64,000 nt of DNA from a bacterium. Lineage in GTDB: Bacteria; Sysuimicrobiota; Sysuimicrobiia; Sysuimicrobiales; Segetimicrobiaceae. The notes beneath the pieces are model-generated. The model made no database searches, was not told the DNA's origin, and saw only the letters and a program-made list of their open reading frames with translations. The translations under genes were made by a program, and so were the position numbers. Below are positions 13,611-63,559 of this stretch, in pieces. Positions within the stretch are counted from its first letter, which is position 1. Every line of letters begins with the position of its first letter. The stretch lies in contig DASYXS010000165.1 in the NCBI GenBank assembly GCA_035934535.1, positions 36-64,035 of the forward strand, written 5' to 3'.

Positions 13611-13678
13611 GCGGCGTCAAGTTCGATGGTGGCCGGCCGCAGACGCTATGGCTCACGCCGTAGGCAGTCGGCCGGCGA
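13611..13678 (+). repeat. palindromic repeat family copy K (loop-expanded, 26-nt loop insert), in the mraZ 5' leader
   Basis: CGGCGTCAAGTTCGATGGTGGCCGGCCGC-[26 nt]-GTCGGCCGGCGAG. Both arms match the ileS copy (53761-53803). Confidence 0.7.
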
Positions 13679-13708
13679 GAGGTCTGGAGCGGTTGTTGAC
13701 GGCGGCGG

Positions 13709-14131
13709 ATGCTCAGGGGCGAAGCGCAGTACGCGCTGGACGACAAAGGGCGGGTGGTGATTCCGCCCAAATTTCGGGCGGTCATGGGCGACCGGATCAT
13801 CGTCACCCGGTGGACCGACCCGTGTCTTTTCGCCTTTTCCGCGCCTGAATGGCAGTCGCTTGAAGAGAAGCTCCGGACGCTGCCGTTGGGCCAGCACGAG
13901 GCGCGCCGGTACGTGCTGTCGGCGGCCGAAGATTGCGAGCTCGACCGGCAGGGCAGGATCTTTCTCGCGCCGCACCTGCGCGAGCACGCGAGCATCACGC
14001 GGTCGGTAACGATCATCGGGGTGGGGGGACACCTGGAACTCTGGAGCACCCCCGCCTGGCGCAGGCGGCTCCAGAAGGTTCGGAAGGCGCCGGAGGAACT
14101 GGCGCAGCAGCTCCAGGCGCTGACGCTGTAA
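13709..14131 (+). CDS. mraZ: transcriptional regulator MraZ
   Basis: 140 aa with two SpoVT/AbrB-like repeats (DDKGRVVIPPKFR, LDRQGRIFLAPHLR). First gene of the dcw cluster. Confidence 0.93.
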   Translation: MLRGEAQYALDDKGRVVIPPKFRAVMGDRIIVTRWTDPCLFAFSAPEWQSLEEKLRTLPLGQHEARRYVLSAAEDCELDRQGRIFLAPHLREHASITRSVTIIGVGGHLELWSTPAWRRRLQKVRKAPEELAQQLQALTL

Positions 14132-14216
14132 GTGTTGGGCAACCCGAGGGCGGCGGTGAGTCGTGCTGGCGACGGTGGCCGTGTGGATGGGTGCGTCGGA
14201 ATCCCCTCACGCGACA

Positions 14217-15176
14217 ATGCACGTTCCGGTGCTGGTGGACGAGGTGCTCGCGTACCTCGCGCCGCGGCCCGGCGCCGTCATTGTTGATGCGACGCTCGGT
14301 GAAGGCGGGCACGCGGAGGCGATTCTCCGCAAGATCGCGCCCGCCGGCCGGCTGGTCGGCTTGGACCGCGACGGCGAAGCGCTGGCGCGCGCGGAAGAGC
14401 GGCTGCGCCGGTTCGGACAGAACGTGACCCTGGCGCAGGCGAATTTCGGCGACCTGGACGAGGCGCTGAACGTGCTCGGCGTGGGGACGGTGGACGGGGT
14501 GCTGCTGGACATCGGGGTCTCGACGCGGCAGCTCATGGAGGCGGAGCGCGGATTCAGTTTCGACCGCGTCGGGCCGCTCGACATGCGCATGGATCGCGGC
14601 GAGTCCCGGACGGCCGCCGATTTGGTGAACGCGCTGCCGGAGCGCGACCTCGCCGACCTGATCTATCGCTACGGCGAAGAGCGGGCGTCGCGGAAGATCG
14701 CCCGGCAGATCGTGGCGCGGCGTCCGCTGCGGACGACGCGCGACCTGGCGCGCGCCGTCGAGGCGGCGGTGGGCGCGAGCCGCGGGCGGCTGCATCCCGC
14801 GACCCGGACGTTTCAGGCGCTGCGGATCGCGACGAACCGCGAGATCGAGTCGCTCGAACGCGCACTCCCGCAGGCGGTGCGGCGTCTCAGGCCGGGCGGC
14901 CGGCTCTGCGTGATCGCGTTCCACTCGATCGAGGACCGCGTCGTCAAGACGGCGCTCGCACGGTTCGCGCGCGGCTGCACCTGTCCACCCGGGCTGCCGG
15001 AGTGCCGGTGCGGCGGCGAGCGGCTCGTGCGGATTCTGACGAAGAAGCCGGTCACGGCGTCCGCGGCCGAAATTGCGCGCAACCCGCGCTCCCGGAGCGC
15101 GCGCCTGCGCGCGGCCGAGCGGTTGATCGATGCCGGCCGGCCGCCGGCCGGCCGGCAGAGCGGCGCCGCATGCTAG
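14217..15176 (+). CDS. rsmH: 16S rRNA (cytosine1402-N4)-methyltransferase RsmH
   Basis: HVPVLVDEVL, DATLGEGGH, DLGVSTRQL, FHSIEDRVVK and NPRSRSARLR motifs. GTG 14163 is an alternative start. The last ~16 codons derive from a repeat copy. Confidence 0.92.
   Translation: MHVPVLVDEVLAYLAPRPGAVIVDATLGEGGHAEAILRKIAPAGRLVGLDRDGEALARAEERLRRFGQNVTLAQANFGDLDEALNVLGVGTVDGVLLDIGVSTRQLMEAERGFSFDRVGPLDMRMDRGESRTAADLVNALPERDLADLIYRYGEERASRKIARQIVARRPLRTTRDLARAVEAAVGASRGRLHPATRTFQALRIATNREIESLERALPQAVRRLRPGGRLCVIAFHSIEDRVVKTALARFARGCTCPPGLPECRCGGERLVRILTKKPVTASAAEIARNPRSRSARLRAAERLIDAGRPPAGRQSGAAC
15125..15158 (+). repeat. palindromic repeat family copy F, forming the 3' tail of rsmH
   Basis: GATCGATGCCGGCCGGCCGCCGGCCGGCCGGCAG is translated as DAGRPPAGRQS. 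The ileS copy is translated as HGGRPPVGRQE. Confidence 0.5.
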
Positions 15177-15631
15177 CGCTGGAACGGCAGCACCGAGTCT
15201 ATCCGGTGCTTCTGCCGGAATCTTGGGCCGAAGGGGGGGAGGCGACCCGGCGTCGGCGGAGACGTTATCCGGTAGTTTCGGCACTCACAATCGCAGCATT
15301 CGCGGTGCTCCCGTTCATCGCATACGTCGCAGCTGTATCCAACGCCGCACACATCGGCTACCAGATCCTACACCTGTCGAAGGACATTGCCGCACTAGAG
15401 ACGGACCACGAACGTCTCCAGGCCACCGCCTCCTCCCTGAGAGCCCCGGATCGCATCGAGCGATTGGCCGTGACGCGCCTCGGCCTGCGTTCGCCCGGCG
15501 AGCACCAAATCGCCGCGATCCGGCTGCCGCACACCGCGGTCCATCCCGACGATCATCGGGCCGGAGTGTGGCAGCGGTTCGGCGCGTACTTCAACCGCAG
15601 CGAGGCGCAGGCCGCACCGGCGCCGCGATGA
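15170..15631 (+). CDS. ftsL: FtsL-like cell division protein (single TM plus coiled coil)
   Basis: Position between rsmH and ftsI. Contains a TM helix (VVSALTIAAFAVLPFIAYVAAV) followed by a heptad-like segment. The ATG overlaps the rsmH end. Confidence 0.6.
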   Translation: MLALERQHRVYPVLLPESWAEGGEATRRRRRRYPVVSALTIAAFAVLPFIAYVAAVSNAAHIGYQILHLSKDIAALETDHERLQATASSLRAPDRIERLAVTRLGLRSPGEHQIAAIRLPHTAVHPDDHRAGVWQRFGAYFNRSEAQAAPAPR

Positions 15632-17529: not shown

Positions 17530-17599
17530 GTGGTGCCGCGGGCTCGTGGGCGGCTGCGCGGCGCATTTTGATGGTATGCTGAGCTCGGAGGACTACCGA

Positions 17600-19099: not shown

Positions 19100-20601
19100 T
19101 GCCGGTCTCGATCTCCGCCGCCGATGCCGCCCGGCTTGCGGGCGGCGCGGTCGTCCACGGTGATCCCGCGGCGTTCGTCTGCGGCGCCGCGGTCGACAGC
19201 CGGGCGGTCGAGCCCGGGATGCTGTTCGTCGCGCTGCGCGGCGAGCACGCCGACGGCCACCGGTTCGTCGGCGAGGCGCTGCGCCGCGGCGCCGGGGCGG
19301 CGCTGATCGCCGCCGGCGCCCCCGCCAGCGATGTCCCCCCTGCGGGCGCGGTGCTGATCCGGACGGCCGACACGCTGCTCGGGCTGCAGCGCCTCGGCCG
19401 GGGACTGCGGGACCGCCGGCCGCTCCGCGTCGTCGGCATCACCGGCAGCGTCGGCAAGACGTCGACCAAAGAGATGACGGCGCTCGTGCTCGCGGAGCGG
19501 TTCGAGACCGCGCGGTCGCCCGAGAACTGGAATACAGAGATCGGCATCCCGCTCGTGCTCGTCAACCTGCCCGCGGCCGCCTCGGTCGCCGTCCTCGAGC
19601 TGGCGATGCGGGGGCCCGGCCAGATTCGTGAGCTCGTGGAGATCGCCCACCCGCAGATCGGCGTCGTGACGGCGATCGGCGAGTCCCACATGGACTTCTT
19701 TGAGACCCGCGAGCAGCTTGCCGCCGCGAAAGGCGAGCTGATCGAAGGCCTGCCGCCGGACGGGGTCGCGGTGCTCAACGCCGACGACCCGCTGGCGCTG
19801 AGTCTGGCCGGCCGGGGACCGGCGCGCGTGATGACGTTCGGGTTCGGCGAGGCGGACGCCACGGCCCGGGGCGTCCGCATGCGGCCGGGGGAGGGCAGCG
19901 CGTTCGTCCTGCGGGTCGGGGGAGACGAGGCCCCGGCCGCGCTGGCCGTCCCGGGGCGGCACGCGATCCGCAACGCGCTCGCGGCCGCGGCGGTGGGGGC
20001 GGCGCTCGGCATCCCCGCGGCCGAGATCGCGCGCGGCCTCGGCCGCGCGCGCGCGATGCCGAAGCGCCTGGAGGTGCTGCGGCTCGGCGGGGCCGTCGTG
20101 ATCAACGACGTGTACAACAGCAGCCCGCGCTCGATGGAGGCCGCGCTCGACGTGATGGACGAGTTTGCGGGACGGCCGCGGATCGCGGTTCTCGGCGACA
20201 TGCGCGAGCTCGGCGCCCTCTCGATGGAGGTCCACCGTCGGGTCGGACGCGAGGTGGCGCGCCGGGGAATCGACACGCTGATCGCGCTCGGCCCCCTGGC
20301 GGCGGACCTGGCCGGGGCCGCCGGCGAGGCGGGACTGCCGTGCGTCGTGCGCACGATCGCTCCCGCGGAGGCGCTCGACGCGCTGCGGCGCGAGATCCGC
20401 CCCGGCGCCGTGGTGCTGGTGAAGGGCTCGCGGGCGCTGGCGATGGAGCAGATCGTCGACGCCCTCCGGCAGGAGGCCGCGAAGGCGGCCGGAGGTCCCG
20501 CGCAGACGGGGCAGGAGGCCGCGAAGGCGGCCGGAGGTCCCGCGCAGACGGGGCACGAAGCCCCGGCCGTGGACGCCGCGGCGGGCCACCATGTCAGCTG
20601 A
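19099..20601 (+). CDS. murF: UDP-N-acetylmuramoyl-tripeptide--D-alanyl-D-alanine ligase, with an extended repeat-derived C-terminal tail
   Basis: GTGATG junction with murE. Contains GITGSVGKTSTKE and the Mur ligase middle and C-terminal domains. A ~45-aa tail follows the conserved ALAMEQIV end. Confidence 0.9.
   Translation: MPVSISAADAARLAGGAVVHGDPAAFVCGAAVDSRAVEPGMLFVALRGEHADGHRFVGEALRRGAGAALIAAGAPASDVPPAGAVLIRTADTLLGLQRLGRGLRDRRPLRVVGITGSVGKTSTKEMTALVLAERFETARSPENWNTEIGIPLVLVNLPAAASVAVLELAMRGPGQIRELVEIAHPQIGVVTAIGESHMDFFETREQLAAAKGELIEGLPPDGVAVLNADDPLALSLAGRGPARVMTFGFGEADATARGVRMRPGEGSAFVLRVGGDEAPAALAVPGRHAIRNALAAAAVGAALGIPAAEIARGLGRARAMPKRLEVLRLGGAVVINDVYNSSPRSMEAALDVMDEFAGRPRIAVLGDMRELGALSMEVHRRVGREVARRGIDTLIALGPLAADLAGAAGEAGLPCVVRTIAPAEALDALRREIRPGAVVLVKGSRALAMEQIVDALRQEAAKAAGGPAQTGQEAAKAAGGPAQTGHEAPAVDAAAGHHVS
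20470..20553 (+). repeat. perfect 42-bp tandem duplication (2 units), in frame in the murF 3' tail
   Basis: CAGGAGGCCGCGAAGGCGGCCGGAGGTCCCGCGCAGACGGGG occurs at 20470-20511 and identically at 20512-20553. It encodes QEAAKAAGGPAQTG twice. Confidence 0.97.
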
Positions 20602-20606
20602 GCGGC
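20561..20606 (-). repeat. probable palindromic repeat family copy L (reverse orientation), supplying the last codons and stop of murF
   Basis: GGCCACCATGTCAGCTGAGCGG resembles the reverse complement of the ileS copy, GGCCACCATGTAAGTCAAGCCG. Both read AGHHVS in the same frame. The left half is gapped. Confidence 0.4.
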
Positions 20607-20613
20607 GCGCGGG

Positions 20614-24361: not shown

Positions 24362-25536
24362 ACCTCGTGCTCGCCGGCGGCGGCACGGGCGGCCATGTCT
24401 ATCCCGCGCTGGCGCTCGCCGCCGCGCTGCGCCGCCGCGATCCCGCCGCGCGGGTGCTGTTCGTCGGCAGCGGGTCGGGCATGGAGGCGTCGCTCGTCCC
24501 GGCCGCCGGCGTCCCGTTTGCCGGCCTCATGGTGCGGCCGCCGCGCAGCCGCTCGCCGCTCCGCACGGCGGTGGCGCTCGGGACCGCGGCCGTGGGATTC
24601 GTGCAGTCCGCCGCGATCGTCGCCCGGTTCAGACCCGACGCCGTCGTCGCGACCGGGGGCATCGCCGCGGCGCCGCCGGTTCTCGCGGCGTGGGTCATGC
24701 GCGTCCCCGTCGTGCTGCTCGAGGGTAACGCCGCGCCGGGGCGCGCGAACGCCTTCCTGGCGCGGTTCGCCCGCGCCGTCGCGGTGACGTCGGACGACGC
24801 GTCGGCGCGCATCCCGGGGGGCCGGGCCCTCGTGACCGGTCTTCCGGTCCGCCCGGAGATCTACTCGACGCCGCGCACGGACGGGCTCGGCGCCTTCGGA
24901 TTGGATCCCGCGCGGCGGACGATTCTGGCGATCGGGGGGAGTCAGGGCGCGGCCCGCCTCAACGCCGCCGTGGATGAGATGGCGATGCATTTGGCGGGCC
25001 GGACAGATCTCCAGGTCCTGCATCAGACCGGCCGCGGCTGGCGCGCCGGCGGCACGGCGGATCCGCCGTCCGCTCCGCTCCCGGCAACGATGACACTGCA
25101 GCCGCCGGCCGCGCCGGGATTGGAGCCCGGCATCCGGCACGTGCGGGTGCCGTACCTCGAGCAGATCGGCCTGGCGTACGCGTGCGCCGATGTGGTGATC
25201 AGCCGCTGCGGCGCCACGGCGCTGGCCGAGATCACGGCGTGCGGACTGCCGGCCGTGCTCGTGCCGTACCGCTACGCGGCCGGGGGCCACCAGGCGGAGA
25301 ACGCGGCGCCGCTCGTCCGCGCCGGCGCGGCGTCGCTCGTCGCCGACGAGGCGATGGACGGAGAAACCTTGGCCCGCGAGGTGCTCGGAATCCTCGAGAC
25401 GCCCGGCCGCCGGGACGCGATGGCCGCGCGGTCCAGGGCGCTCGGCCGTCCCGACGCCGCGGACCGGGTCCTCGCCCTGCTGGAGCGGCTCCGCAGCGGC
25501 GCCCCGGCGGCCGTGTCGAAGGAATCCCACGCATGA
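24358..25536 (+). CDS. murG: UDP-N-acetylglucosamine--N-acetylmuramyl-(pentapeptide) pyrophosphoryl-undecaprenol GlcNAc transferase
   Basis: ATGA overlap with ftsW. Contains GGTGGHVYPALA and the C-terminal RCGATALAEI...GGHQAENA. An in-frame repeat copy lies inside. Confidence 0.92.
   Translation: MNLVLAGGGTGGHVYPALALAAALRRRDPAARVLFVGSGSGMEASLVPAAGVPFAGLMVRPPRSRSPLRTAVALGTAAVGFVQSAAIVARFRPDAVVATGGIAAAPPVLAAWVMRVPVVLLEGNAAPGRANAFLARFARAVAVTSDDASARIPGGRALVTGLPVRPEIYSTPRTDGLGAFGLDPARRTILAIGGSQGAARLNAAVDEMAMHLAGRTDLQVLHQTGRGWRAGGTADPPSAPLPATMTLQPPAAPGLEPGIRHVRVPYLEQIGLAYACADVVISRCGATALAEITACGLPAVLVPYRYAAGGHQAENAAPLVRAGAASLVADEAMDGETLAREVLGILETPGRRDAMAARSRALGRPDAADRVLALLERLRSGAPAAVSKESHA
25055..25107 (-). 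repeat. palindromic repeat family copy A (53-nt long variant), in frame inside murG
   Basis: Its reverse complement is 49/53 identical to 26950-27002. Within MurG it is translated as ...TADPPSAPLPATMTLQPP... Confidence 0.9.
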
Positions 25537-27038
25537 CCGCATCCGGCAGCCATACCGACCCCGCCGCCAGCGGCCTGCCGATTGTCCGGGGCGCGCGCAC
25601 CCATTTCGTCGGCATCGGCGGAGCCGGGATGAGCGGCATCGCCCGCGTGCTGCTGGCGCGCGGCTGCGCCGTGTCCGGCTCCGACCTCCGGGAGAGCGAG
25701 ACGACGCGGCGCCTCAGGGCGGCCGGCGCGGTCGTGTACATCGGACACGCGGCGTCCAACGTCGAGGGCGCCCAGATCGTCATCGTCAGCCGCGCGGTGG
25801 CCGACGAGAACGTCGAGGTGCGCGTCGCGGTCGCGCGCGGGCTGCCGATCGTGCACCGGGCGCGGATGCTGGCCGAGCTCATGCGCGACCGCGACGCGAT
25901 CGCGGTTGTCGGCACCCACGGCAAGACGACGACGACCGCCATGCTCGGCGCGATCCTCGCGCGGGCCGGCCGGGATCCGACCGTGCTGGTCGGCGGCGAC
26001 GTCGCCGCTTTCGGCGGAACCGCGCGCGTCGGGGACGGGCGCGACGTCGTCGCGGAGGTGGACGAGAGCGACGGGTCGCTCGTCTGGGTCGCGCCGTCCA
26101 TCGCCGTCGTGACGCCGCTCGACGCCACCGACCACCTCGACTTCTACGGCTCCGAAGCGCGGCTCATGGAGACGTTCCGGCGGTTCCTCGCCGCCGTGCC
26201 GGCCTCCGGGTTCGCCGCGGTGTGCACCGACGCCCCCGCGGGCCGGGCGCTGGCCCGGGACGCGGGATCGCGCACCGTGACGTACGGGCTCGACGGCGAC
26301 CCGGCGTACCGCGGCCGGGTGCTCGAGGCCGCGGGCCACCGCACCGTCGTCGAAGCTCAGCGCGGCGACGCGGTCGTCGGCCGGATCGAACTGGCGGTCC
26401 CCGGCGCCTACAATGCGCAGAACGCGATCGGCGCGCTCGCCGTCGCGACGGAGCTCGGCATCCCCCAGGACGTCACCGCCGGGGCGCTCGCGGCGTTCGA
26501 GGGCGTCGCCCGCCGGTTCAGCGTGCGCGGCGACGTCGACGGTGTTCTCGTCGTGGACGACTACGCCCACAATCCGACCAAGGTGGCGGCCCTGCTCGCC
26601 GCGGCCCGCCGCGGCTGGCCGGCGGCGCGGATTGTGGCGGTGTTCCAGCCGCACCGGTTCACGCGCACGCAGACCGTGGGCCACCAGTTCGCGCGCGTGT
26701 TCGACCCGGTCGACGAGGTGATCGTGACCGAGATCTACGCGGCCGACGAGCCGCCCATCCCCGGCGTGAACGCGGGGATCATCGTGCGGGCCGTGAGCGC
26801 GCACCGGCCCGTCCGGTTCGTGCCCGATCTCGGCGACGCCGCGGCGCTGGTGGCCGCCGAAGCGCGGTCTGGGGACCTGGTCCTGACAATCGGGGCCGGC
26901 GATGTGTGGAAGGTCGCCGAGGACGTCACCGCGCGGCTGCGGGGACGGTCGGCGGCTCCAGTGTTATCGTTGCCGGGAGCGGAGCGGACGGCAGGTCCGC
27001 CGGCCGCGCCGAGCGGCGCGGAGGCCCCGCGTGGCTAA
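25533..27038 (+). CDS. murC: UDP-N-acetylmuramate--L-alanine ligase
   Basis: ATGA overlap with murG. Contains GIGGAGMSGIA and GTHGKTTTT. The C-terminal ~30 aa derive from a repeat copy. Confidence 0.92.
   Translation: MTASGSHTDPAASGLPIVRGARTHFVGIGGAGMSGIARVLLARGCAVSGSDLRESETTRRLRAAGAVVYIGHAASNVEGAQIVIVSRAVADENVEVRVAVARGLPIVHRARMLAELMRDRDAIAVVGTHGKTTTTAMLGAILARAGRDPTVLVGGDVAAFGGTARVGDGRDVVAEVDESDGSLVWVAPSIAVVTPLDATDHLDFYGSEARLMETFRRFLAAVPASGFAAVCTDAPAGRALARDAGSRTVTYGLDGDPAYRGRVLEAAGHRTVVEAQRGDAVVGRIELAVPGAYNAQNAIGALAVATELGIPQDVTAGALAAFEGVARRFSVRGDVDGVLVVDDYAHNPTKVAALLAAARRGWPAARIVAVFQPHRFTRTQTVGHQFARVFDPVDEVIVTEIYAADEPPIPGVNAGIIVRAVSAHRPVRFVPDLGDAAALVAAEARSGDLVLTIGAGDVWKVAEDVTARLRGRSAAPVLSLPGAERTAGPPAAPSGAEAPRG
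26950..27002 (+). repeat. palindromic repeat family copy B (53-nt long variant), in the murC 3' tail
   Basis: CGGCGGCTCCAGTGTTATCGTTGCCGGGAGCGGAGCGGACGGCAGGTCCGCCG. It is 49/53 identical to the reverse complement of 25055-25107 and shares a 26-nt identical core with 44700-44725. Confidence 0.9.
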
Positions 27039-27957: not shown

Positions 27958-28796
27958 TGCCGCGTCCGCCGGTGGGGGATGCCGCGGCGGTACTCCCGCG
28001 CGGGCCACGCCGGGCCGCCCCAGGGGCGCCGGCCGTCTCCGCGGGCAGCCCCGCGGCGGCCGGCAGGCGCGTGGTGCGCTTCCTCGCGGCGATCGCGTTC
28101 CTCTGCGGCGGGGTGTCCTTCGCGGGATCGAGTGTGTTCGACATCCGGTCGGTCAGTGTCGCCGGGAACCGCGCCGTCCCGGCGCCGGAAATCCTCGCGC
28201 GGGCCGGCGTCCGGACGGGGACCAGCCTTTTCACGGTCAACGCCGAGCGGATCCGCGACCGGCTGGCGCAAGACCCGCGGATCGCCGAGGTCTCGGTCGG
28301 CGTCGCCTTTCCCGACCACGTCTATATCACTGTGCGCGAGCGCACGGCCGCGGCCGCGCTGCGCGTGCCGGGAGGCTACGTTCTCCTCGGTTCGGACGGG
28401 GTCGCCATCGCGCCGTCCGGAACGCCCGGGCCGCTCCCGACGCTGAGGGTCGACGGGCTCGACCCGGCGGAGGTGCAGGCGGGGATCGTGGTCCCCTCCC
28501 CGGACGCCCGGTTCGGGGCGGAGGTCGCGGCCTCGCTTCCTGAGGTTCTGCGGCCGGACGTGGCGGCCCTCCGGGTGGACGGGGCGGGCGAAGTGGTTCT
28601 CTACACCCGGGACGGCATCGCGGTCCGCGCCGGAGCGCCGGACGGCATCCGCGATCGCCTCGCCCGCGTGGCCGACGTGCTGGCCGCGGTGCGATCGCGC
28701 GGCATGCGGGTCGAGTACGTGGACCTGCGGTTCCCCGGCAGTGTGATCGTGAAGCCCATCGGCGGCCCCGCCGGACCGGCCGGAAGGCCGGGTTAG
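27957..28796 (+). CDS. ftsQ: cell division protein FtsQ/DivIB (POTRA domain)
   Basis: TGATG junction with murB. Has an N-terminal TM helix and a POTRA-like segment (IRSVSVAGNRAVPAPEILARAGV). Position between murB and ftsA supports the call. Confidence 0.8.
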   Translation: MPRPPVGDAAAVLPRGPRRAAPGAPAVSAGSPAAAGRRVVRFLAAIAFLCGGVSFAGSSVFDIRSVSVAGNRAVPAPEILARAGVRTGTSLFTVNAERIRDRLAQDPRIAEVSVGVAFPDHVYITVRERTAAAALRVPGGYVLLGSDGVAIAPSGTPGPLPTLRVDGLDPAEVQAGIVVPSPDARFGAEVAASLPEVLRPDVAALRVDGAGEVVLYTRDGIAVRAGAPDGIRDRLARVADVLAAVRSRGMRVEYVDLRFPGSVIVKPIGGPAGPAGRPG

Positions 28797-30134: not shown

Positions 30135-30363
30135 GGGTGGGGGAATCCCCGCTTCTGCCGGCCGCCATGATCGCGGCGGGGCAGACGGCACGGCCGTCGT
30201 GACACCGCAGCAGACGCACCACACAACGCGCATTCATTCTGACACAGACGAGGCGACAACCATGGCAGAGAAACGGTGGCATCCGATCCAGCGCATGATC
30301 TCCGAGCGGCCCGGGACGGCACGTGCCGGGGACGGTGTCCCCGAACCAGCGGGAGGGGTGAGG

Positions 30364-43549: not shown

Positions 43550-43613
43550 CCCGGCGCCTATTTCGCACGCCCCTCGGACGAGTCCTGGAGGCGGGAGGCG
43601 CGTCTCTGGCCTG

Positions 43614-43654
43614 CGCCGCAGGCTCAGAAGCCGGAGGTCTCTCAGCCTGCGGCG
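43614..43654. repeat. 15-bp inverted repeat (14/15 complementary, 11-nt spacer) in the DUF1275/phnD divergent spacer
   Basis: CGCCGCAGGCTCAGA (43614-43628) pairs with TCTCAGCCTGCGGCG (43640-43654). Confidence 0.8.
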
Positions 43655-43740
43655 TGAGCCAGTACACCCGGACGAGAGGAGAAGATTCTCCGCCGAAAGA
43701 ACCTGTGCGCGAATCGCCACCGTCTCGGGGGAGGAACACC

Positions 43741-44660: not shown

Positions 44661-44732
44661 GTTAATTTCATGGTGGCCGGCCGCTCGGGTTTCATGTTGG
44701 CCGGGAGCGGAGCGGACGGCAGGTCGGCCGGC
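44661..44732 (+). repeat. palindromic repeat family copy C (compound: short left half plus long variant), in the phnD-phnC spacer
   Basis: GTTAATTTCATGGTGGCCGGCCGCTCGG followed by GTTTCATGTTGGCCGGGAGCGGAGCGGACGGCAGGTCGGCCGGC. The 26-nt core is identical to copy B. Confidence 0.88.
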
Positions 44733-48813: not shown

Positions 48814-49865
<1,052 letters not shown>

Positions 49866-49869
<4 letters not shown>

Positions 49870-51391: not shown

Positions 51392-51397
51392 CCGCGG

Positions 51398-51675: not shown

Positions 51676-51738
51676 TCATTCCGGGCGCGCTCTCGTAGCG
51701 CGGTCCCTAGACCGGTTCTAGATCGGAGGAGTTGCTCG

Positions 51739-54700
51739 ATGGTATTCCGGCCAGTCGATCCGCGCGCGGATTTTCCGGCGCAGGAGCGCGCCATCTTAGA
51801 CTGGTGGACGCGGGAAGGCATCCTGGCCCGCTACCTCGCGAAGAACCGCGACGCGGCGGCGCGCTGGTCCTTTCTCGACGGGCCGATCACCGCGAACAAT
51901 CCGATGGGCGTGCACCACGCCTGGGGCCGGACGTACAAGGACCTGTTCTGTCGGTACCACACCATGCTCGGCCACCGGCAGCGCTACCAGAACGGCTTCG
52001 ACTGTCAGGGTCTTTGGGTGGAGGTGGAGGTCGAGAAGGAGCTCGGATTCAAGAGCAAGCGGGACATCGAGCAGTACGGGATCGCGGAATTCGTCGAGCG
52101 CTGCAAGGCGCGCGTGCTGCGGTTCGCCGGCGTGCAGACGCAACAGTCGATCCGGCTCGGCTACTGGATGGATTGGGACAATTCGTACTATACGATGTCC
52201 GATGAGAACAACTACAGCATCTGGCTCTTTCTGAAGCGGTGCTGGGAGCGCGGCCTCGTCTACAAAGGCCACGACGTCATGCCCTGGTGCCCGCGGTGCA
52301 GCACCGGCATCTCCGAGCACGAGATCGTCACCGAAGGCTATCAGGAGGTGACGCACCTCAGCATCACCGCGCGCCTGCCGATCGCCGGGCGGGCCGGGGA
52401 GTATCTCCTGGTCTGGACGACGACGCCCTGGACGCTGACGAGCAACGTCGCCGTGGCCGCGCACCCGGACCTCACCTACGTCCAGGTGAAGGAGCGCAAC
52501 GGCGCGAGCTACTACGTCGCCAAGGACCGTCTCGAGGCCACGACGGCCGGCCGGGCGAAAGTCTCGGTCGTGCGCGAGCTGCCCGGGCGCGACCTCGTCG
52601 GGTGGACCTATGAGGGGCCCTTCGACGATCTCCCGGCGCAGCAGGGCGTGACACACCGCGTCATCCCCTGGACGGAGGTGAGCGCGGCCGAAGGCACGGG
52701 CCTCGTGCACATCGCCCCGGGGTGCGGCGCCGAGGACTTCGCGCTCGGCAAGGAGCACGGCTTGGCCGTGCTGGCGCCGATCGACGAGTTCGGCGTGTTC
52801 ACGGAGTCCTTCGGGCGCATGAGCGGCCGGCACGTCTACGAGGTCGCCCCGCTGATCAAGGACGACCTCGAGCGGCGCGGTCTCTTGTACGGCGCGGACG
52901 ACCACACCCACCGCTACCCGATGTGCTGGCGGTGCGGAAGCGAGCTCGTCTTCCGTCTCATCGACGAGTGGTTCATCGCGATGGACTCGCTGCGGGAGCC
53001 GATGATGGCGGTGACCCGGCAGATCACGTGGATTCCGGAGTTCGGGCTCGAGCGGGAGCTCGACTGGCTGCGCAACATGCACGATTGGATGATCAGCAAG
53101 AAGCGCTATTGGGGCCTCGCGCTGCCGATCTACGAATGCAAGGCGTGCGAGACGTTCGAGGTGATCGGCAGCGAGCAGGAGTTGAAGGCGCGCGCCGTCG
53201 AGGGCTGGGACGCCTTTGAGGGCCACACACCGCACCGGCCGTGGATCGACGCGGTGAAGATCCGCTGCCGGAAGTGCGGCGCCGTGGTCTCGCGCATTCT
53301 CGACGTCGGCAACCCGTGGCTCGACGCGGGGATCGTGCCCTTTTCGACGATGTTCTACCGCCAAGATCCCGCGACGTGGCGCGGGTGGTTTCCCGCGGAC
53401 TTCATCACCGAGGCGTTTCCGGGGCAGTACCGCAACTGGTTCTACTCCATGCTGGTGATGAGCACCGTGCTCGAGAACCGGCCGCCGTTCCTGACGTGTC
53501 TCGGCCACGCGATGGTCCGCGACGAGACCGGGCGCGAGATGCACAAGTCCTGGGGCAACATGATCGAATTCAACGACGCCGCGGAGCGGATGGGGTCCGA
53601 CGTCATCCGCTGGCTCTACGCGGTGCAGAACCCGGCCCAGAACGTCAACTTCGGCTACGGGCCGGGCGACGAGGTCCGCCGGCGCTTCGTCCTGCCGCTG
53701 TGGAACGTCTACGCGTTCTTCGTGACCTACGCGAACCTCGACGGCTGGACACCCGGCGGCCGGCTTGACTTACATGGTGGCCGGCCGCCTGTCGGCCGGC
53801 AGGAGGCGCCGCCGTCGCCGCTCGATCGGTGGATTCTGTCGCGGCTCGCGGACGTGATCGCCACCGTCCGGGCCCGGCTCGACGCCAGCGACGTCGCCGG
53901 GGCGGCGCGGCCGATCGAGCGGTTCGTCGACGATCTCTCGCTGTGGTACGTCCGGCGCGGCCGCCGGCGCTACTGGAAGTCGGAGGGCGACGCCGACAAG
54001 CAGGCCGCGTACGAGACGCTGTACGAGGTTCTCGTCACGCTGTCGCGCGTGCTGGCGCCTTTCGTGCCGTTCCTGACCGAGGCGCTGTACCAGAATCTCG
54101 TACGCTCGGTGGACGCGCGGGCGCCGGAGAGCGTGCACCTCTGCCCGATGCCGGCGCCGGACGAAGGGGCGCGGGATCCGCAGCTCGAGCAGGGGATGCA
54201 GCAGACGCGCCATCTCGTCTATCTCGGACGCGCCGCGCGGAACGAGGCGCGGATTAAAGTGCGGCAGCCGCTTGCGTCCGCCACGCTGCTCGACCGATCG
54301 GGTACCGTGGCCGGCCGCCCCGAGCTCATCGAGCTGTTGAAAGACGAACTGAACGTGCGCGAGGTGCGGTTCGCCGGATCGCTTGGAGACATCGGTCGTC
54401 TCGAGGTCCGCCCGCGCTTCGATCTACTCGGCCCGAAGTTCGGCGGACGCATCACCGCGATCGCGGACGCGCTGCGGGCGCAGGGCCCTTCGCTTGTCGA
54501 GCAGACCCCCGACGGCGAGCCGTATCGCCTACGGTTGCCGGGCGGGGAGGAGATCGTGCTCGAGCGCGCCGAGGTCGACGTGCGGATGCGGTGGCGCGAG
54601 GGCCGCGCCGGGGCGGGCGAGGGCGGCGCGTGGGCCGTCCTCGACACCACGGTGACGGAGGACCTCGCCCTCGAGGGACTCGCGCGCGAGCTCATCCATC

Positions 54701-54969
54701 AGGTGCAGCAAATGCGCAAACAGGCGGGGCTCGAGATCGCCGACCGGATCACCCTCTACTACGAAGGCGACGACCGGCTGCCGGACCTGATCCGGAAGCA
54801 CGGCGAGACGATCCTGCGCGAGGTCCTGGCGACCTCCGCGGCTGCGGGCGTGCCCGCCGGTGCGGCGCATACGAAGTCCGTGCGGCTGGATTCGCAGACG
54901 GTGACGCTCGGGATCGCGCGGCTGGAGGCGGCGGCCGTACGGCGGACGAAGCCGGGACCGGTGCAATGA
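51739..54969 (+). CDS. ileS: isoleucine--tRNA ligase (type 2-like, ~1076 aa)
   Basis: GGAGGA RBS at 51725-51730. Has a class I aaRS core with editing-domain and zinc-ribbon insertions (CPRCSTG, CWRCGSE, CKACE, CRKCG). A T-box(Ile) leader lies upstream. An in-frame repeat copy lies inside. Confidence 0.88.
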   Translation: MVFRPVDPRADFPAQERAILDWWTREGILARYLAKNRDAAARWSFLDGPITANNPMGVHHAWGRTYKDLFCRYHTMLGHRQRYQNGFDCQGLWVEVEVEKELGFKSKRDIEQYGIAEFVERCKARVLRFAGVQTQQSIRLGYWMDWDNSYYTMSDENNYSIWLFLKRCWERGLVYKGHDVMPWCPRCSTGISEHEIVTEGYQEVTHLSITARLPIAGRAGEYLLVWTTTPWTLTSNVAVAAHPDLTYVQVKERNGASYYVAKDRLEATTAGRAKVSVVRELPGRDLVGWTYEGPFDDLPAQQGVTHRVIPWTEVSAAEGTGLVHIAPGCGAEDFALGKEHGLAVLAPIDEFGVFTESFGRMSGRHVYEVAPLIKDDLERRGLLYGADDHTHRYPMCWRCGSELVFRLIDEWFIAMDSLREPMMAVTRQITWIPEFGLERELDWLRNMHDWMISKKRYWGLALPIYECKACETFEVIGSEQELKARAVEGWDAFEGHTPHRPWIDAVKIRCRKCGAVVSRILDVGNPWLDAGIVPFSTMFYRQDPATWRGWFPADFITEAFPGQYRNWFYSMLVMSTVLENRPPFLTCLGHAMVRDETGREMHKSWGNMIEFNDAAERMGSDVIRWLYAVQNPAQNVNFGYGPGDEVRRRFVLPLWNVYAFFVTYANLDGWTPGGRLDLHGGRPPVGRQEAPPSPLDRWILSRLADVIATVRARLDASDVAGAARPIERFVDDLSLWYVRRGRRRYWKSEGDADKQAAYETLYEVLVTLSRVLAPFVPFLTEALYQNLVRSVDARAPESVHLCPMPAPDEGARDPQLEQGMQQTRHLVYLGRAARNEARIKVRQPLASATLLDRSGTVAGRPELIELLKDELNVREVRFAGSLGDIGRLEVRPRFDLLGPKFGGRITAIADALRAQGPSLVEQTPDGEPYRLRLPGGEEIVLERAEVDVRMRWREGRAGAGEGGAWAVLDTTVTEDLALEGLARELIHQVQQMRKQAGLEIADRITLYYEGDDRLPDLIRKHGETILREVLATSAAAGVPAGAAHTKSVRLDSQTVTLGIARLEAAAVRRTKPGPVQ
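53761..53803 (+). repeat. palindromic repeat family copy D (43-nt short form), in frame inside ileS
   Basis: CGGCTTGACTTACATGGTGGCCGGCCGCCTGTCGGCCGGCAGG is 33/43 identical, ungapped, to copy E and to the reverse complement of copy J. It is translated as GRLDLHGGRPPVGRQ. Confidence 0.85.
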
Positions 54970-56830: not shown

Positions 56831-56905
56831 GTTAGGGTGGCATAGTGTCGCGGACGCCGTCCCGCGGTCCCGCGGGGCGGCTGGTGTCGCGAACGGAGGT
56901 GAAGG

Positions 56906-57736
56906 ATGAAGCCCGTGCTCTTCCAAATCGGGCCGTTTCCCGTGTCGTCGTTCGGCGTGTTCCTGCTGGCGGCGTTCGTCGCCGGCATTCTGCTGCTGCG
57001 GACACGGACGTTGCGGTGGGGGTGGGACGGCGGGGAGATCCTCGATCTGAGCCTTTATTCGATCATCGGCGGCGTGATCGGGGCGCGTATCGGGTACGTC
57101 CTCGTCAACCTTCGCGACTTTGCGGCCGACTGGGCGCGCGTGCTCACGATCTGGAGAGACGCCGGGCTCACGTTCTACGGGGCGCTCGCAGGCGGCGCCT
57201 TGGTCGCGTGGCTGTACAGCCGCCGCCGCGGGTGGAGTCTCGGATGGCTGGCCGACGCCGCGGCGCCGGGGCTCGCGTTAGGGTACGCCATCGCCATGAT
57301 CGGCACGCTGCTCTACGGGCTCAACTACGGGCGGGCCGCGTCGGTACCCTGGGCGGTCACGCTGTTCGGCGAGCCGCGGCATCCGACGCAGCTGTATCTC
57401 ATGCTCGCGTCGGTTATCATTCTGGCGATCGTGCAGCCGGCCGCGGGCCGTCCGCACGCGCCCGGGCGGGTGTTTTGGGCGTATCTTGGCCTGTACGGGA
57501 TCGCGCGGGCGGTGGTCGAGGTGTTCATGGACAGCCCCCGCGTGGTCGGGCCGCTCACGCTCGCGCAGGCGCTGAGTCTCCTTGTCGCCGTGCTATCGCT
57601 GGTGATGTGGCTCGTGCTCAAGGGACGTCCCGCGGAAACCGGACCCGCCGGCGTGGCGGGCATGGAAGCGGCACCCGACCTCGGCGACGTGGGCGGCGGT
57701 TCGCCGCCGTCCGAACCCGGTGAGCGCCGGGTCTAA
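56906..57736 (+). CDS. lgt: prolipoprotein diacylglyceryl transferase
   Basis: Contains FGVFLLAAF, GGVIGARIGYV and the HPTQLY motif. A GGAGGTGAAGG RBS lies upstream. Confidence 0.9.
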   Translation: MKPVLFQIGPFPVSSFGVFLLAAFVAGILLLRTRTLRWGWDGGEILDLSLYSIIGGVIGARIGYVLVNLRDFAADWARVLTIWRDAGLTFYGALAGGALVAWLYSRRRGWSLGWLADAAAPGLALGYAIAMIGTLLYGLNYGRAASVPWAVTLFGEPRHPTQLYLMLASVIILAIVQPAAGRPHAPGRVFWAYLGLYGIARAVVEVFMDSPRVVGPLTLAQALSLLVAVLSLVMWLVLKGRPAETGPAGVAGMEAAPDLGDVGGGSPPSEPGERRV

Positions 57737-57762
57737 TGCCGGCCGGCCGCGGGCCTGCGGTG
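57727..57762 (+). repeat. possible degenerate palindromic repeat copy G at the lgt/rluD junction
   Basis: CGGGTCTAATGCCGGCCGGCCGCGGGCC resembles copy E, CGGTTCTAAT...TGCCGGCCGC. The right arm has decayed. Confidence 0.3.
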
Positions 57763-57859
57763 CGAGCCAAAGCGCGCCGGCCGCAGTAAGATCGTAGCCG
57801 GTCCCACGATCCATCGGTTCGACGCGGCTGCGGCCGACGACGGGCGCCGGCTCGACGTC

Positions 57860-58792
57860 GTGATCGCCGCGCACGTGCCGTCGATTTCGAGATCCCGTGT
57901 CGCGCAACTGGCGGCGGGCGGCGGGGTTCGCGTAGACGAACGGCCGCGGAAGCCGGCGTTTCGCGTGCGGCGCGGCCAGGCCGTCGAGATCACGGTGCCT
58001 CCGCCGGCGCCGTCCGGCGTGCAGCCCGAGGCGATCCCGCTCGACATCGTCCTGGAAGACGCGGACCTGCTCGTCGTCAACAAGCCGGCCGGCCTCACCG
58101 TCCATCCCGCGCCCGGCCATCCGTCGGGCACGCTCGTCAACGCGCTCCTGTCGGCGGTCCGCGACCTCGCGGGGATCGGCGGCGAACTGCGGCCGGGCAT
58201 CGTCCATCGCCTGGACAAGGATACGTCGGGGCTGCTGGTGGTGGCGAAGTCGGACGCGGCGCACCGCGTTCTCGCCGCGCAGTTCAAGGCGCACACGGCG
58301 CAGCGGACGTACCTCGCCGTCGTACGCGGCCGCGTGCGCCGCGACGAGGGCACCATCGCGGCCGCGCTCGGCCGGCATCCGGTGCGGCGGACGCGCATCG
58401 CGGTGGTGGCGCGCGGCCGTCCCGCGGTGACGCATTATACGGTCCTCGAGCGATTCCGGAACGCGACGCTCCTGGCGTGCCGGCTCGAGACCGGACGCAC
58501 GCACCAGATCCGCGTTCATCTCGCGCACGCGGGGCATCCGCTGCTCGGCGATCCGGTCTACGGCCGGGCCCGAGCGCCGGAGATTGCCCGGCAGGCGCTC
58601 CACGCGGCGCGGCTCGAATTCACGCACCCGCGCACCGGGCGGCGCGTGACGTGCACGGCGCCGGTGCCGGACGATATGGTGCGCCTCCTCGCGCGGCTGC
58701 GCGCCGAGGCGGGGCAGGAGGCCGCCGGGCGACCGGGGCGGCCGGAGGTCCCGCGTCAGACGGGGGACGTTTCGGCCGGAAGCGAAGGATAG
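57860..58792 (+). CDS. rluD: 23S rRNA pseudouridine synthase RluD family. True start probably upstream of the listed GTG.
   Basis: Contains HRLDKDTSGLLVVAK and GRTHQIRVH. The S4-domain residues (FDAAAADDGRRLD) are encoded upstream of GTG 57860, in the same open frame. Confidence 0.85.
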   Translation: MIAAHVPSISRSRVAQLAAGGGVRVDERPRKPAFRVRRGQAVEITVPPPAPSGVQPEAIPLDIVLEDADLLVVNKPAGLTVHPAPGHPSGTLVNALLSAVRDLAGIGGELRPGIVHRLDKDTSGLLVVAKSDAAHRVLAAQFKAHTAQRTYLAVVRGRVRRDEGTIAAALGRHPVRRTRIAVVARGRPAVTHYTVLERFRNATLLACRLETGRTHQIRVHLAHAGHPLLGDPVYGRARAPEIARQALHAARLEFTHPRTGRRVTCTAPVPDDMVRLLARLRAEAGQEAAGRPGRPEVPRQTGDVSAGSEG

Positions 58793-58801
58793 GGCGCGGA
58801 G

Positions 58802-59356: not shown

Positions 59357-59359
59357 TCG

Positions 59360-61132: not shown

Positions 61133-61208
61133 ATGTCGAAAGATCGCGTCCGAACGCGTGCGGACGAGCAAGAAGGAGATTCGCCGGGCCATGCCGGACT
61201 TCCTGACC

Positions 61209-62087: not shown

Positions 62088-62108
62088 CGGGCGGAGGGCG
62101 GCGCGGCC

Positions 62109-62405
62109 ATGGATACGCGGCTCATCAATATCGGGTTCGGCAACATCGTGGCGGCCAGCCGCATCATCGCCATCGTGAGTCCGGATTCTGCGCCGATCAA
62201 GCGGATCATCCAGGAGGCCCGGGACAAGGGCATACTCATCGACGCGACCTACGGCCGGCGGACGCGCGCGGTCGTGATCACCGACAGCGGACACGTCGTG
62301 TTGTCGGCCGTTCAGCCGGAGACGGTCGCGCACCGGTTCACCAGCAAGGAGGCCGTCGAGGAAGAGGACGAAGACATCGAAGAGGAGCCGGTGGCGGGCG
62401 AATGA
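62109..62405 (+). CDS. remA: RemA/DUF370 family regulator
   Basis: [28 protein letters not shown]...[15 protein letters not shown] is highly characteristic. An acidic C-terminal tail follows. Confidence 0.9.
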
Positions 62406-62938
62406 TTCTCACCGTCAGCGGCGAAATCGGCGCGGGCAAGAGCACCGTGGCGCGCGCGCTGGCGCACGCCCTCGGGCTTCGTTATCTCTCCAGCGGTGCG
62501 ATCTTCCGGGAGGAAGCCCGCCGCCGCGGCGTCACGGTTGCCGCGCTCGGCCGCCTGGCCGAGCAGGATCCCTCGATCGATCGCGTGATCGACCAGGCCC
62601 AGGTGGCCGAGGCGCGCGCCGGTGATATCGTCGTCGAGAGCCGGTTGAGCGGCTGGCTCGTCGATGGGGATGTGCGGATCTGGCTGCGGGCGCCGGCGGA
62701 GGTGCGCGCGCGCCGCGTCGCCGCCCGCGACGGCATGCCGATCGACGCGGCGCGGGCCGACGTCGACAATCGTGAGGCCTGCGAACGCCGGCGCTACGCG
62801 GCACTGTACCAGATCGATCTCGCCGACTTGAGCCGCTATCACCTCATCCTCGACACGTCGCTCTGGGGCCCGGAGGACATCACGCACGCGATCGCCACGC
62901 TCTCTCGCGCGCTCCGGCCGCCGGTCGTCAGTGGCTGA
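62402..62938 (+). CDS. family-2 (archaeal-type) cytidylate kinase-like P-loop kinase
   Basis: ATGA overlap with rem[21 protein letters not shown]...[10 protein letters not shown]...DPSIDRVID...ESRLSGW...[14 protein letters not shown] matches the Cytidylate_kin2 pattern, not guanylate kinase. Confidence 0.7.
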
Positions 62939-63491
62939 GTCCCTGCGCGGCCGGACGGTCGTCCTCGGCGTCGCCGGCAGCATCGCCGCGTACAAGGCGG
63001 CGGTGATTGTTCGCCGGCTGCGGGAACGCGGCGCCGAGGTCTTCGTGGTGATGACGTCCGCGGCGGCGCGGTTTGTCACGCCGCTGACGTTCCGCGCGCT
63101 CTCGCAGCAGCCGGTCGTGGCGGATATGTGGGCCGGCGACGTGCCCTGGGAGGAGCCCCACGTCGTCCTCGGTGAGCGGGCGGACCTGGTGCTCGTGGCG
63201 CCGGCCACCGCCGACCTGCTCGCGCGCCTCGCCGGCGGGTTCGGCGACGATCCGGTCTCGGCGACGGTGCTCGCCACGCGTGCGCCCGTCGTCGTCGCGC
63301 CTGCGATGAGCGACGCGATGGCGCAGGCCGCCGCGGTCCAGGAGAATCTCGCGCGCCTGCGCGCCCGCGGCGTCCACGTGGTCGGGCCGGAGCGCGGGGT
63401 GCTGGCATCGGGCCGTGTCGGACTCGGCCGGATGACCGAGCCGGAGGCGATCGTCGAGGCCGTCGCCGCGATCCTCGCCGAGAAACGCTGA
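62931..63491 (+). CDS. coaC: flavoprotein, phosphopantothenoylcysteine decarboxylase-like (CoaC half only)
   Basis: GVAGSIAAYKA...VVMTSAAARFVTPLTF...APATADLLARLAGG. At 186 aa it has no CoaB (synthetase) domain. Confidence 0.78.
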   Translation: MAESLRGRTVVLGVAGSIAAYKAAVIVRRLRERGAEVFVVMTSAAARFVTPLTFRALSQQPVVADMWAGDVPWEEPHVVLGERADLVLVAPATADLLARLAGGFGDDPVSATVLATRAPVVVAPAMSDAMAQAAAVQENLARLRARGVHVVGPERGVLASGRVGLGRMTEPEAIVEAVAAILAEKR

Positions 63492-63516
63492 GGAGGGCGG
63501 ACTCACGAACGCGTTC

Positions 63517-63559
63517 GTGCCGGCCGACCGGCGGCCGACGACCATGCTGTCCCAGCCGA
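63517..63559 (-). repeat. palindromic repeat family copy J (43-nt short form, reverse orientation), containing the priA start codon
   Basis: CGTGCCGGCCGACCGGCGGCCGACGACCATGCTGTCCCAGCCG is 33/43 identical, ungapped, to the reverse complement of 53761-53803. Its internal CCATG provides ATG 63544. Confidence 0.8.

Follow-up and report, generated by a model that had tools for sequence, protein, structure and literature searches.

A 36-nucleotide palindromic repeat, polymorphic among relatives, that lies between genes and in frame within genes of an uncultured soil lineage

The window analyzed in this study (the whole stretch of 64 kb from contig DASYXS010000165.1, numbered from its first letter) contains GC-rich palindromic sequences that recur at operon junctions and within open reading frames (ORFs). 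This raises the question of whether these palindromes are copies of one element and, if so, how the same DNA came to lie both between genes and inside the coding sequences of essential proteins. A preliminary description, made from the letters of the window alone, had regarded them as an unrecognized interspersed family. We found that a palindromic repeat with a unit of 36 nt is a genuine family. It is previously undescribed, and it is new within a known kind: the small palindromic selfish repeats that invade ORFs in frame.

The reality of the family was judged against chance. A hidden Markov model (HMM) was trained on 73 copies, all from other metagenomes and none from the window. It gave ten window matches of at least 10 bits (at 53761, 42751, 44659, 21672, 63556, 44684, 13613, 25104, 26953, and 17490), all of which fall at loci named in the preliminary description, while 30 dinucleotide shuffles of the window, a control which that description had proposed, gave none (top score, 8.9). 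A loose pattern for the head of the unit matched the window 16 times against 2.99 expected, and none of 100 shuffles reached 16. In total, 12 loci were found in the 64 kb, so that the density estimated earlier, about one copy per 5 kb, holds. Copies were found only in relatives with a MurG or IleS identity of about 80% or higher, and they come from several independent assemblies; three more distant division and cell wall (dcw) loci (21 kb each, a small sample) had no copies. The Rfam search of the window matched RNase P only, the scan of viral contigs with the exact 28-nt core of the repeat gave no match, and the plasmids searched gave only partial chance matches. On the latter two results, an origin from phages or plasmids was rejected. 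Together with the polymorphic insertions described below, these findings bear out the earlier view of an unrecognized family at operon junctions and in ORFs. A scan of genome contigs with the gapped pattern CATGKTKGCCGGN{6,36}GTCSGCCGGC proved too loose, as it returned chance matches from many phyla; among the matches listed, the only true copy was L038 (metagenome-assembled genome (MAG) SMAG_U9794), which belongs to the same lineage. A possible decayed 36-nt copy, CTCAATTACACGGTCGCCGCGGCGGCCGGC, was also seen at 6862–6900 on the plus strand, at the 5′ end of an alpha/beta-hydrolase gene; its score of 8.0 bits is within the shuffle range.

Related copies were collected by scanning metagenome contigs once with the exact 28-nt core CATGKTKGCCGGCCGCNNGTCGGCCGGC, which yielded 82 loci, 573 kb in all, drawn from a few soil metagenomes, and 78 distinct short (36-nt) copies were aligned for the consensus. 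The basic unit is TTYRATTWCATGGTKGCCGGCCGC-NN-GTCGGCCGGC, nearly always with GGC before it and a purine after it, and the consensus reads (cc)GGC, then TTYRATTWCATGGTKGCCGGCCGC NN GTCGGCCGGC, then R. The unit begins with an AT-richer 15-nt arm, TTYRATTWCATGGTK, which is followed by a GC-only hairpin, GCCGGCCG / C-NN-G-T / CGGCCGGC; the 8-bp stem and the 5-nt loop of this hairpin are as first described. Conservation spans about −4 to +37 and is at the background level beyond: G occupies −1 in 77 of the 78 copies, C occupies 0 in 72, T occupies 1 in 66, and a purine occupies +37 in 75. The flanking GCCGGC, at positions −5 to −3, is seen in only about 60–75% of the copies. The unit had been taken to be 43 nt, and the surplus is accounted for by the conserved 5′ flank CCGGC and the 3′ flank; head-to-tail arrays with a period of 36 (L131, L143, L134, L172, and L123) show that the unit is 36 nt. 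The GGC before a copy is either the end of the preceding copy or target sequence. At stem pair 22–30, three double changes from C-G to G-C, which are compensatory, were found, and the stem of the repeat is maintained.

Three length classes occur in the related loci: 36 nt (78 copies), 48 nt (4 copies with two loop types), and 60 nt (2 copies). The window contains three copies of 36 nt, three of 48 nt, and one each of 39, 59, 60, 63, and 72 nt; the copy at 20564, which is degenerate, measures about 38 nt. What had been called loop-expanded relatives are partly the same element with 12 or 24 more loop bases, giving the 48- and 60-nt forms, and partly nested or composite copies, as in L168 and at window position 44661. 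The 60-nt form is a 36-nt unit that holds a separate 24-nt mini-hairpin in its loop. The length classes are thus all multiples of three, and this suggests selection on the element for harmlessness in coding DNA. Terminal inverted repeats were not found, as the 3′ end, GCCGGC, offers nothing complementary to TTYRATT at the 5′ end, and the 78-copy consensus has no GTAG or CGTC tag at either end: TTYRATTWCATGGTK lies 5′ of the stem and nothing lies 3′ of it. There are no inverted dimers, and the copies are single or head-to-tail. A few inverted pairs of copies, 0.2–2 kb apart, surround ordinary genes; the ORFs between inverted copies were CoxS-like and PdxS/PdxT, with no transposase.

For the comparison of individual sites, the dcw region was aligned with those of L001 (MurG 85% identical) and L003 (MurG 81% identical), and the region from fumC to priA with those of L122/L200 (85% nucleotide identity) and L198 (89%). 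The copies in the window are as follows.

13617–13676, plus strand: 60-nt loop-expanded copy, intergenic, upstream of mraZ (13709); 12.8 bits on the head
15128–15166, plus strand: 39-nt hairpin-only relative, GCCGGCCGGCCGC/CGGCCGGCCGGC, at the 3′ end of rsmH, in frame; clean 39-nt indel relative to L001
17451–17513, plus strand: 63-nt composite, a head unit TTCAATGAC...GAGTCCGCCGGC and then a GTGGCCGGCCGCGGGCCGGCCGGC hairpin, at the 3′ end of ftsI, in frame; 10.5 bits
20564–20601, minus strand: degenerate copy at the murF/mraY junction; 8.8 bits (borderline); 37–38-nt indel relative to L003
21621–21668, minus strand: 48-nt copy in murD, in frame; 26.6 bits; fold z-score −3.7
25053–25100, minus strand: 48-nt copy inside murG, residues ~233–248, in the C-terminal domain
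26957–27004, plus strand: 48-nt copy in the C-terminal tail of murC, in frame, past the Mur_ligase_C domain; 11.0 bits
42755–42790, plus strand: canonical 36-nt copy in the spacer between a DUF1275 gene and fumC, both genes on the minus strand; 40.3 bits
44661–44732, plus strand: 72-nt composite in the phnD–phnC spacer; 28.4 and 17.2 bits
53765–53800, plus strand: canonical 36-nt copy in frame in ileS, encoding LDLHGGRPPVGR; 40.6 bits; indel relative to L198 and L200
57738–57796, minus strand: degenerate 59-nt loop-expanded copy in the lgt–rluD spacer
63519–63554, minus strand: 36-nt copy at the coaBC–priA junction; 20.9 bits

Most of the pairwise similarities reported earlier were reproduced. 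On recount, 53761–53803 and 42751–42793 agree at 33 of 43 positions. The same number was obtained for 53761–53803 and a reverse complement, with the latter shifted by one base: 63517–63559, as first given, yields 12 of 43, and 63516–63558 yields 33 of 43. The match of 25055–25107 to the reverse complement of 26950–27002 is 49 of 53, and the repeat search lengthens it to an inverted match of 57 nt (91%) between the murG copy and 26946–27002. The 26-nt core common to 44661–44732 and 26950–27002 is exact (GCCGGGAGCGGAGCGGACGGCAGGTC). The loop at 13611–13678, reported as 26 nt, was measured as 29 nt; this copy has the outer stem and head of the 36-nt unit with the 24-nt mini-hairpin in the loop, a type that recurs in L168 and L200. 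As for the copies that had been thought weak, the one at 21621 is in fact strong, and the one at 17487 belongs to the ftsI composite, which is missing in both L001 and L003. The one at 20561 is an indel relative to L003 with a borderline HMM score. The one at 15125 coincides with the clean in-frame indel in rsmH, yet it scores just 5.6 bits, so that its membership in the family is probable but not proven. The one at 57727–57762 is real, although it covers only the 3′ half of the reverse-oriented 59-nt copy. Those at 28011–28066 and 30153–30180 showed neither a model match nor a clean indel; the latter may be a decayed remnant, given that L003 carries a genuine copy in the ftsA–ftsZ spacer.

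Filled and empty sites among the relatives are evidence for insertion. Three copies of the window, at 42755–42790 (36 nt), 44661–44732 (exactly 72 nt), and 53765–53800 (36 nt), are absent from L122/L200 and L198. Conversely, L200/L122 have copies of their own, at 2039 and 9652 of L200, which neither the window nor L198 has, and the ftsA–ftsZ copy of L003 is lacking in the window. The murD copy is common to the window and L001, and is missing in L003, where mraY and murD overlap as GTGA; at the murC site, L001 has a shorter variant and L003 has nothing. At the lgt–rluD site, the 60-nt copy of L200 is intact, and the inner 38 nt are missing from L198. The copy at 63519–63554 is shared with L198, and is thus an older insertion. 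In a three-way comparison over 22.6 kb, the family accounts for 5 of the 25 indels of at least 15 nt and for part of a sixth. These filled and empty sites indicate that the family was active both before and after the genomes diverged, and we are highly confident that the repeat is a mobile insertional element.

The junctions follow a simple rule. The four well-defined empty sites all read SGC^G, and new copies sit immediately 3′ of GGC (often GCCGGC) and 5′ of a purine. Insertion also occurs after the GGC at the 3′ end of the element itself, which gives the period-36 arrays, and inside the stems of other copies, which gives nested composites; thus, 44661–44732 consists of the 5′ half of one unit (44661–44684) and a complete 48-nt unit (44685–44732). 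A further landing place is behind the GCCGGC of an unrelated hairpin, GGGACTAGCCGGC...GCGCCGGCGTC, that resembles a repetitive extragenic palindrome (REP). A REP-like family, GCGGGACTAGCCGGCGGGATGCGCCGGCGTCGC, a hairpin with a CTAG flank and a CGTC end, was observed in the relatives (e.g., L119 6655, L130 13373, L153 5550, and L184 8484) and not in the window, and the 36-nt element has often landed at its GCCGGC. At 44661, the flanks (CCGC and CGGC) rule out a target duplication of 4 bp or longer.

How do the copies lie with respect to genes? Among about 85 canonical copies in the window and the related loci, 46 are within predicted ORFs (for 19 of these, each ORF end is 90 nt or more away), 11 straddle an ORF end, and 27 lie between genes, at a coding density of 0.90. 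Coding DNA is therefore under-represented among the insertion sites, yet far less so than for ordinary REPs or for MITEs, the miniature transposable elements with inverted repeats. As had been noted before, the copies inside ORFs are stop-free in the frame of the host gene, and they proved to be true in-frame insertions into otherwise conserved proteins. In the window, the hosts are IleS, MurD, MurG, MurC, RsmH, and FtsI. In the relatives, ten hosts were confirmed by Pfam: DnaE, GlyS, transketolase (TktA, with a 60-nt copy), GlnA (within the catalytic domain), PurD, HolB (with a 48-nt copy), L10, an ABC ATPase, a Zn-dehydrogenase (Zn-ADH), and a histidine kinase. In these proteins, the insert either has domains on both sides or falls within a domain that is longer by the residues expected. 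Since the lengths are multiples of three, an insertion into a gene adds 12–20 residues rich in Gly, Ala, Arg, and Pro and does not destroy the gene, and such insertions persist where essential proteins have surface loops, domain linkers, or termini.

The clearest example is IleS, which reads ...GGR-LDLHGGRPPVGR-QEAPPS...; the insert lies in the linker between the catalytic and anticodon-binding domains, with Pfam domains on either side. The five closest orthologues (89–92% identity) are without the segment, and four of them are shorter by exactly 12 residues and the fifth by 11. The same linker holds other, longer, and unrelated insertions in P0141, P0144, P0145, P0146, P0160, and P0174 (e.g., PAGRQIPPGGRQVPPG in P0146), and it looks like a recurrent insertion hotspot or a permissive site. 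The murD copy begins two codons past the GTG start (21615) and adds 16 residues. The murG copy occupies a hypervariable surface loop that varies among orthologues, and in the AlphaFold model of MurG (mean predicted local distance difference test score (pLDDT) 88.6; predicted template modeling score 0.89), residues 232–252 are the only internal stretch with a pLDDT below 50. At gene junctions, the element provides or displaces stop and start codons and parts overlapping genes: the copy at 20564–20601 supplies the TGA (20599–20601) that now ends murF, and it splits the ATGA overlap of murF and mraY seen in L003. The element is read in five of the six frames and in both orientations, giving such unrelated peptides as FNFMVAGR.., ELHGGRP.., AGR.AAGHHEI.., and PAD.RPATMK... 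As one DNA sequence is translated into unrelated peptides in five frames, the similarity is at the DNA level. That the sixth frame (CCA TGA) is not seen is a consequence of the way in which ORFs are called, and it does not count as independent evidence.

By what means could such copies move? We consider them likely to be copies of a small non-autonomous mobile DNA element. An enzyme acting in trans, from a gene located elsewhere in the genome, would recognize the hairpin together with the 15-nt arm and move the element. The IS200/IS605 transposases and the REP transposase TnpA-REP act on folded single strands, with a short sequence 5′ of the hairpin selecting the cleavage site, and TnpA-REP cuts single-stranded DNA at CT or CA dinucleotides beside the hairpin (PMC8266576). 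Because the repeat has no terminal inverted repeats, no long target duplication, a sequence-specific left junction C^T, and a single hairpin, our best guess is a hairpin-recognizing single-strand enzyme of the HUH/Y1 type, such as those that act on IS200/IS605 ends and REPs. That an HUH mechanism moves the element is suggested tentatively, by analogy with these systems, which are its nearest mechanistic precedent.

Several observations weigh against this interpretation, and are gathered here. No transposase or other mobilizing gene was found in the window (by Pfam searches of 30 of about 60 genes and by the precomputed Pfam annotation of syntenic relatives for most of the others). In about 0.69 Mb of related fragments, tblastn with IS200, IS608, and Escherichia coli RAYT (REP-associated tyrosine transposase) queries, a weak test, gave chance matches only, which fell in a histidine kinase and an amidohydrolase. 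Single-strand insertion of the IS200/IS605 type is expected to be biased toward one replication strand. However, the orientation of the copies relative to the local GC skew, a proxy for the replication direction, was unbiased (40 vs 40; 10 vs 18 where |skew| exceeds 0.03), and the orientations in the window are split evenly, 6:6 over the 12 loci and 6:4 among the ten model-detected copies. A single hairpin per unit also departs from the HUH precedent. A target duplication of 2–3 bp (GC or GGC) would be indistinguishable here, since the target (S)GC and the 3′ end GGC of the element are identical. In the folding check suggested in the preliminary description, the z-scores of single copies were mostly unremarkable, within about 2 SD of GC-rich shuffles, and those of the copies at 15128 (−3.4) and 21621 were lower. 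Against a background of 70% GC, such energies are uninformative, and they were not used as support. Finally, most of the related copies were found with the exact 28-nt pattern, by which core variation and the abundance of subtypes are biased, and the gene calls in the related loci came from a home-made caller based on codon usage, with about 20 host genes checked by Pfam or orthologues.

A different explanation is that the copies are primarily REP-like mRNA hairpins selected by the host, which stabilize upstream messages, decouple translation, or set the expression ratios in operons such as dcw, and which have spread by selection for this function. Of the 12 window loci, eight or nine belong to the dcw cluster or adjoin it, mostly at gene junctions; the compensatory changes preserve the hairpin; and a mild orientation bias against the local gene strand exists (52 vs 29). 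In other bacteria, REPs are located chiefly between co-directional and convergent genes, and they are presumed to work as RNA elements (PMC3733652). However, the copies occur in both orientations and five frames deep within unrelated housekeeping genes, and the junction copies are not conserved, the equivalent junctions being empty at 85–89% identity. They have no U-tract for termination, and tandem and nested copies are hard to account for. The route to new sites is also unexplained by selection for a hairpin, which complements mobility and does not replace it. We regard this explanation as unlikely. An mRNA role of the hairpin at junctions is possible as a by-product, and it is insufficient by itself because it leaves the ORF copies and the non-conserved junction copies unexplained.

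It might also be supposed that no dedicated enzyme is involved, and that the copies arose by template switching, hairpin-primed repair synthesis, or gene conversion between GCCGGC-rich sites, or as filler DNA at breaks in GCCGGC (e.g., restriction-type cuts). No transposase was found, insertion takes place at GGC/GCCGGC, a palindrome present three times in and around the element, and slippage could extend the period-36 arrays. Nevertheless, a conserved, non-palindromic, AT-rich 15-nt arm always lies on the same side of the hairpin, the boundaries of the inserts are identical at dozens of unrelated loci, which points to a defined element that is recognized and not to random filler, and dispersal to sites megabases apart would need a mobile intermediate. 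This origin is quite unlikely. Least probable is a similarity that is only compositional or belongs to the proteins, that is, a Gly/Ala/Arg-rich peptide module under selection, or GC palindromes produced by chance through codon bias at 70% GC; this we hold to be very improbable. Palindromes of the GCCGGC type are indeed common in such a genome, single fold energies are near those of shuffles, and the weak copies at 28011 and 30153 are probably of this kind. However, the same DNA is found between genes and in five frames with unrelated peptides, matches of at least 10 bits number ten in the window and zero in the shuffles, the exact 28-nt core is missing from the viral contigs, and among the loose-scan matches listed the true copy was of the same lineage. 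For the 12 listed loci, the five-frame use and the shuffle test refute this explanation.

The window has a GC content of 70%, and its plus strand carries nearly all genes. By Pfam and synteny, it contains a complete dcw cluster (mraZ, at 13709, rsmH, ftsL, ftsI, murE, murF, mraY, murD, ftsW, murG, murC, murB, ftsQ, ftsA, and ftsZ, ending at 31452), and outside this cluster it also encodes nrdR, fumC, phnDCE, sepF, ileS (51739–54969), lspA, lgt, rluD, and priA. The organism is uncultured; the closest relatives of its proteins come from soil metagenomes and MAGs, and the nearest named relatives of its IleS (about 59–68% identity) carry the label Armatimonadota. A bacterial class A RNase P RNA lies at 311–662 on the plus strand (296 bits; the sole Rfam match in the window), and no tRNA genes were found in the 64 kb. 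A ribonucleotide reductase gene at 35569–39288 on the plus strand, with Ribonuc_red_lgN, Ribonuc_red_lgC, and TSCPD domains, is split at about residues 130–515 by an intein with a LAGLIDADG homing-endonuclease domain; its position is the sole marked GC dip of the window (0.57 at 36–38 kb).

Two other small palindromic repeats were observed. The first is an unrelated GC-rich repeat of about 42 nt, GCAGGAGGCCGCGAAGGCGGCCGGAGGTCCYGCGCAGACGGG, which forms an exact tandem pair (20468–20509 and 20510–20551) in the 3′ coding end of murF, doubled in L003 too, and occurs singly at 58710–58760 on the plus strand near the 3′ end of rluD and at 42940–42990 on the minus strand in the region of the DUF1275 gene. 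Over about 0.7 Mb (the window, the related loci, and L198), 16 distinct copies of its 12-nt core were counted. A 45-nt insertion of this repeat behind ileS is private to L198, and the repeat appears to insert in frame as well. The second is the 24-nt mini-hairpin (…TTTGGCTCGCGCCGCAGGCCCAR…), which is located in the loops of 13617–13676 and 57738–57796, and also at about 43600–43676 of the window and about 16970 of L200. It forms independent indels between the window, L198, and L200, and this suggests that it is a third small insertional hairpin family. A broader idea, which we offer as a speculation that is less likely than not to hold, is that the 36-nt element stands for a separate class of selfish DNA, one that is "coding-compatible": its lengths would be fixed at multiples of 12 nt (36, 48, and 60), its sequence would have evolved for translation in five of the six frames, and a mobilizing enzyme with no relation to RAYTs would direct it to GGC^R. 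In that case, the element and at least two further in-frame hairpin families of the same genomes (42-nt and 24-nt) would form a large and continuing supply of insertions into the loops and linkers of essential proteins in an uncultured soil lineage of phylum rank.

The in-frame invasion of essential genes by palindromes has been held to be a hallmark of Rickettsia, with scattered intragenic REPs elsewhere; the present family is a clear second case, in a free-living high-GC lineage. It has recent lineage-specific insertions in IleS, MurD, FtsI, RsmH, DnaE, GlyS, and GlnA. The family provides a natural map of the sites at which essential enzymes tolerate insertions of 12–20 residues, and the junction rule GGC^T...GGC^R is testable in a search for the mobilizing enzyme. 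In practical terms, the element inflates ORFs, moves predicted starts and stops, and makes indels that confuse the annotation of MAGs and the comparison of strains.

Finally, the repeat was compared with known systems. Mycobacterial interspersed repetitive units (MIRUs), one of the two analogies drawn in the preliminary description, also lie at junctions of co-directional genes, can overlap stops and starts, and are tandem at some loci. This analogy is weak, as MIRUs are 40–100-bp units of the variable-number tandem repeat type, essentially intergenic, and neither palindromic hairpins nor single in-frame copies in ORFs, whereas the present family forms tandem arrays at a few loci only, most copies being single and about half intragenic. 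MITEs (Correia, ERIC, and QMITE of Coxiella) are likewise non-autonomous and insertion-polymorphic, and are sometimes fused in frame to ORFs; however, their defining features are terminal inverted repeats and target-site duplications, and their usual length is 50–500 bp, while the present unit is 36 nt, with no terminal inverted repeats and a duplication of at most 2–3 bp. The ends of IS200/IS605 and their miniature derivatives are similar in that they have neither terminal inverted repeats nor a long target duplication, insert immediately 3′ of a short, specific sequence, and have a hairpin beside the cleavage site. They differ in having two different subterminal hairpins, at the left and right ends, and a strong replication-orientation bias, against one hairpin and a 40:40 ratio here. 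REPs, with their GTAG and CGTC super-families and their RAYT (TnpA-REP) enzymes (PMC3733652; PMC8266576), are also 20–40-nt high-copy hairpins with no terminal inverted repeats and a left boundary C^T, and they lie mostly at gene 3′ ends or between co-directional genes, at times within genes in frame. Unlike them, the window element has no GTAG or CGTC tag, its unpaired arm is a conserved 15-mer, and its stem is all G-C, whereas the stems of CGTC REPs begin with A-T pairs. REPs are typically head-to-head or tail-to-tail dimers (REPINs and BIMEs) and only a small minority lie in ORFs, in contrast to the singletons or head-to-tail arrays here and the roughly half of the copies in ORFs, and no RAYT was seen in the ~0.7 Mb of fragments searched with the Y1 queries.

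The other analogy, with the Rickettsia palindromic elements (RPEs), is apt. A large fraction of the RPEs, which are palindromic interspersed repeats, occupy unrelated housekeeping genes in frame (Ogata et al. 2000, 2002, as summarized in PMC10969869 and PMC3733652). Like the present repeat, they are found in such hosts as tRNA synthetases, DnaE, and repair and replication genes, add a peptide segment to the protein without inactivating it, and have no known associated transposase. RPE-1 is nevertheless about 100–150 bp long and AT-rich, and its hosts are obligate intracellular alphaproteobacteria, while the present element is 36 nt (48 or 60 nt in its longer forms), has a GC-only stem, and belongs to a free-living soil lineage with 70% GC. 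The short RPE-4 and RPE-6 are counted among the CGTC-tagged REPs, whereas the window element has no CGTC tag, and a relationship to the RPEs in sequence is not expected. The intragenic REPs of Di Nocera et al. likewise include copies in DnaE, tRNA synthetases, and repair genes (PMC3733652). In its behavior, the repeat is thus closest to the RPEs and to these intragenic REPs, and its architecture is different from theirs.

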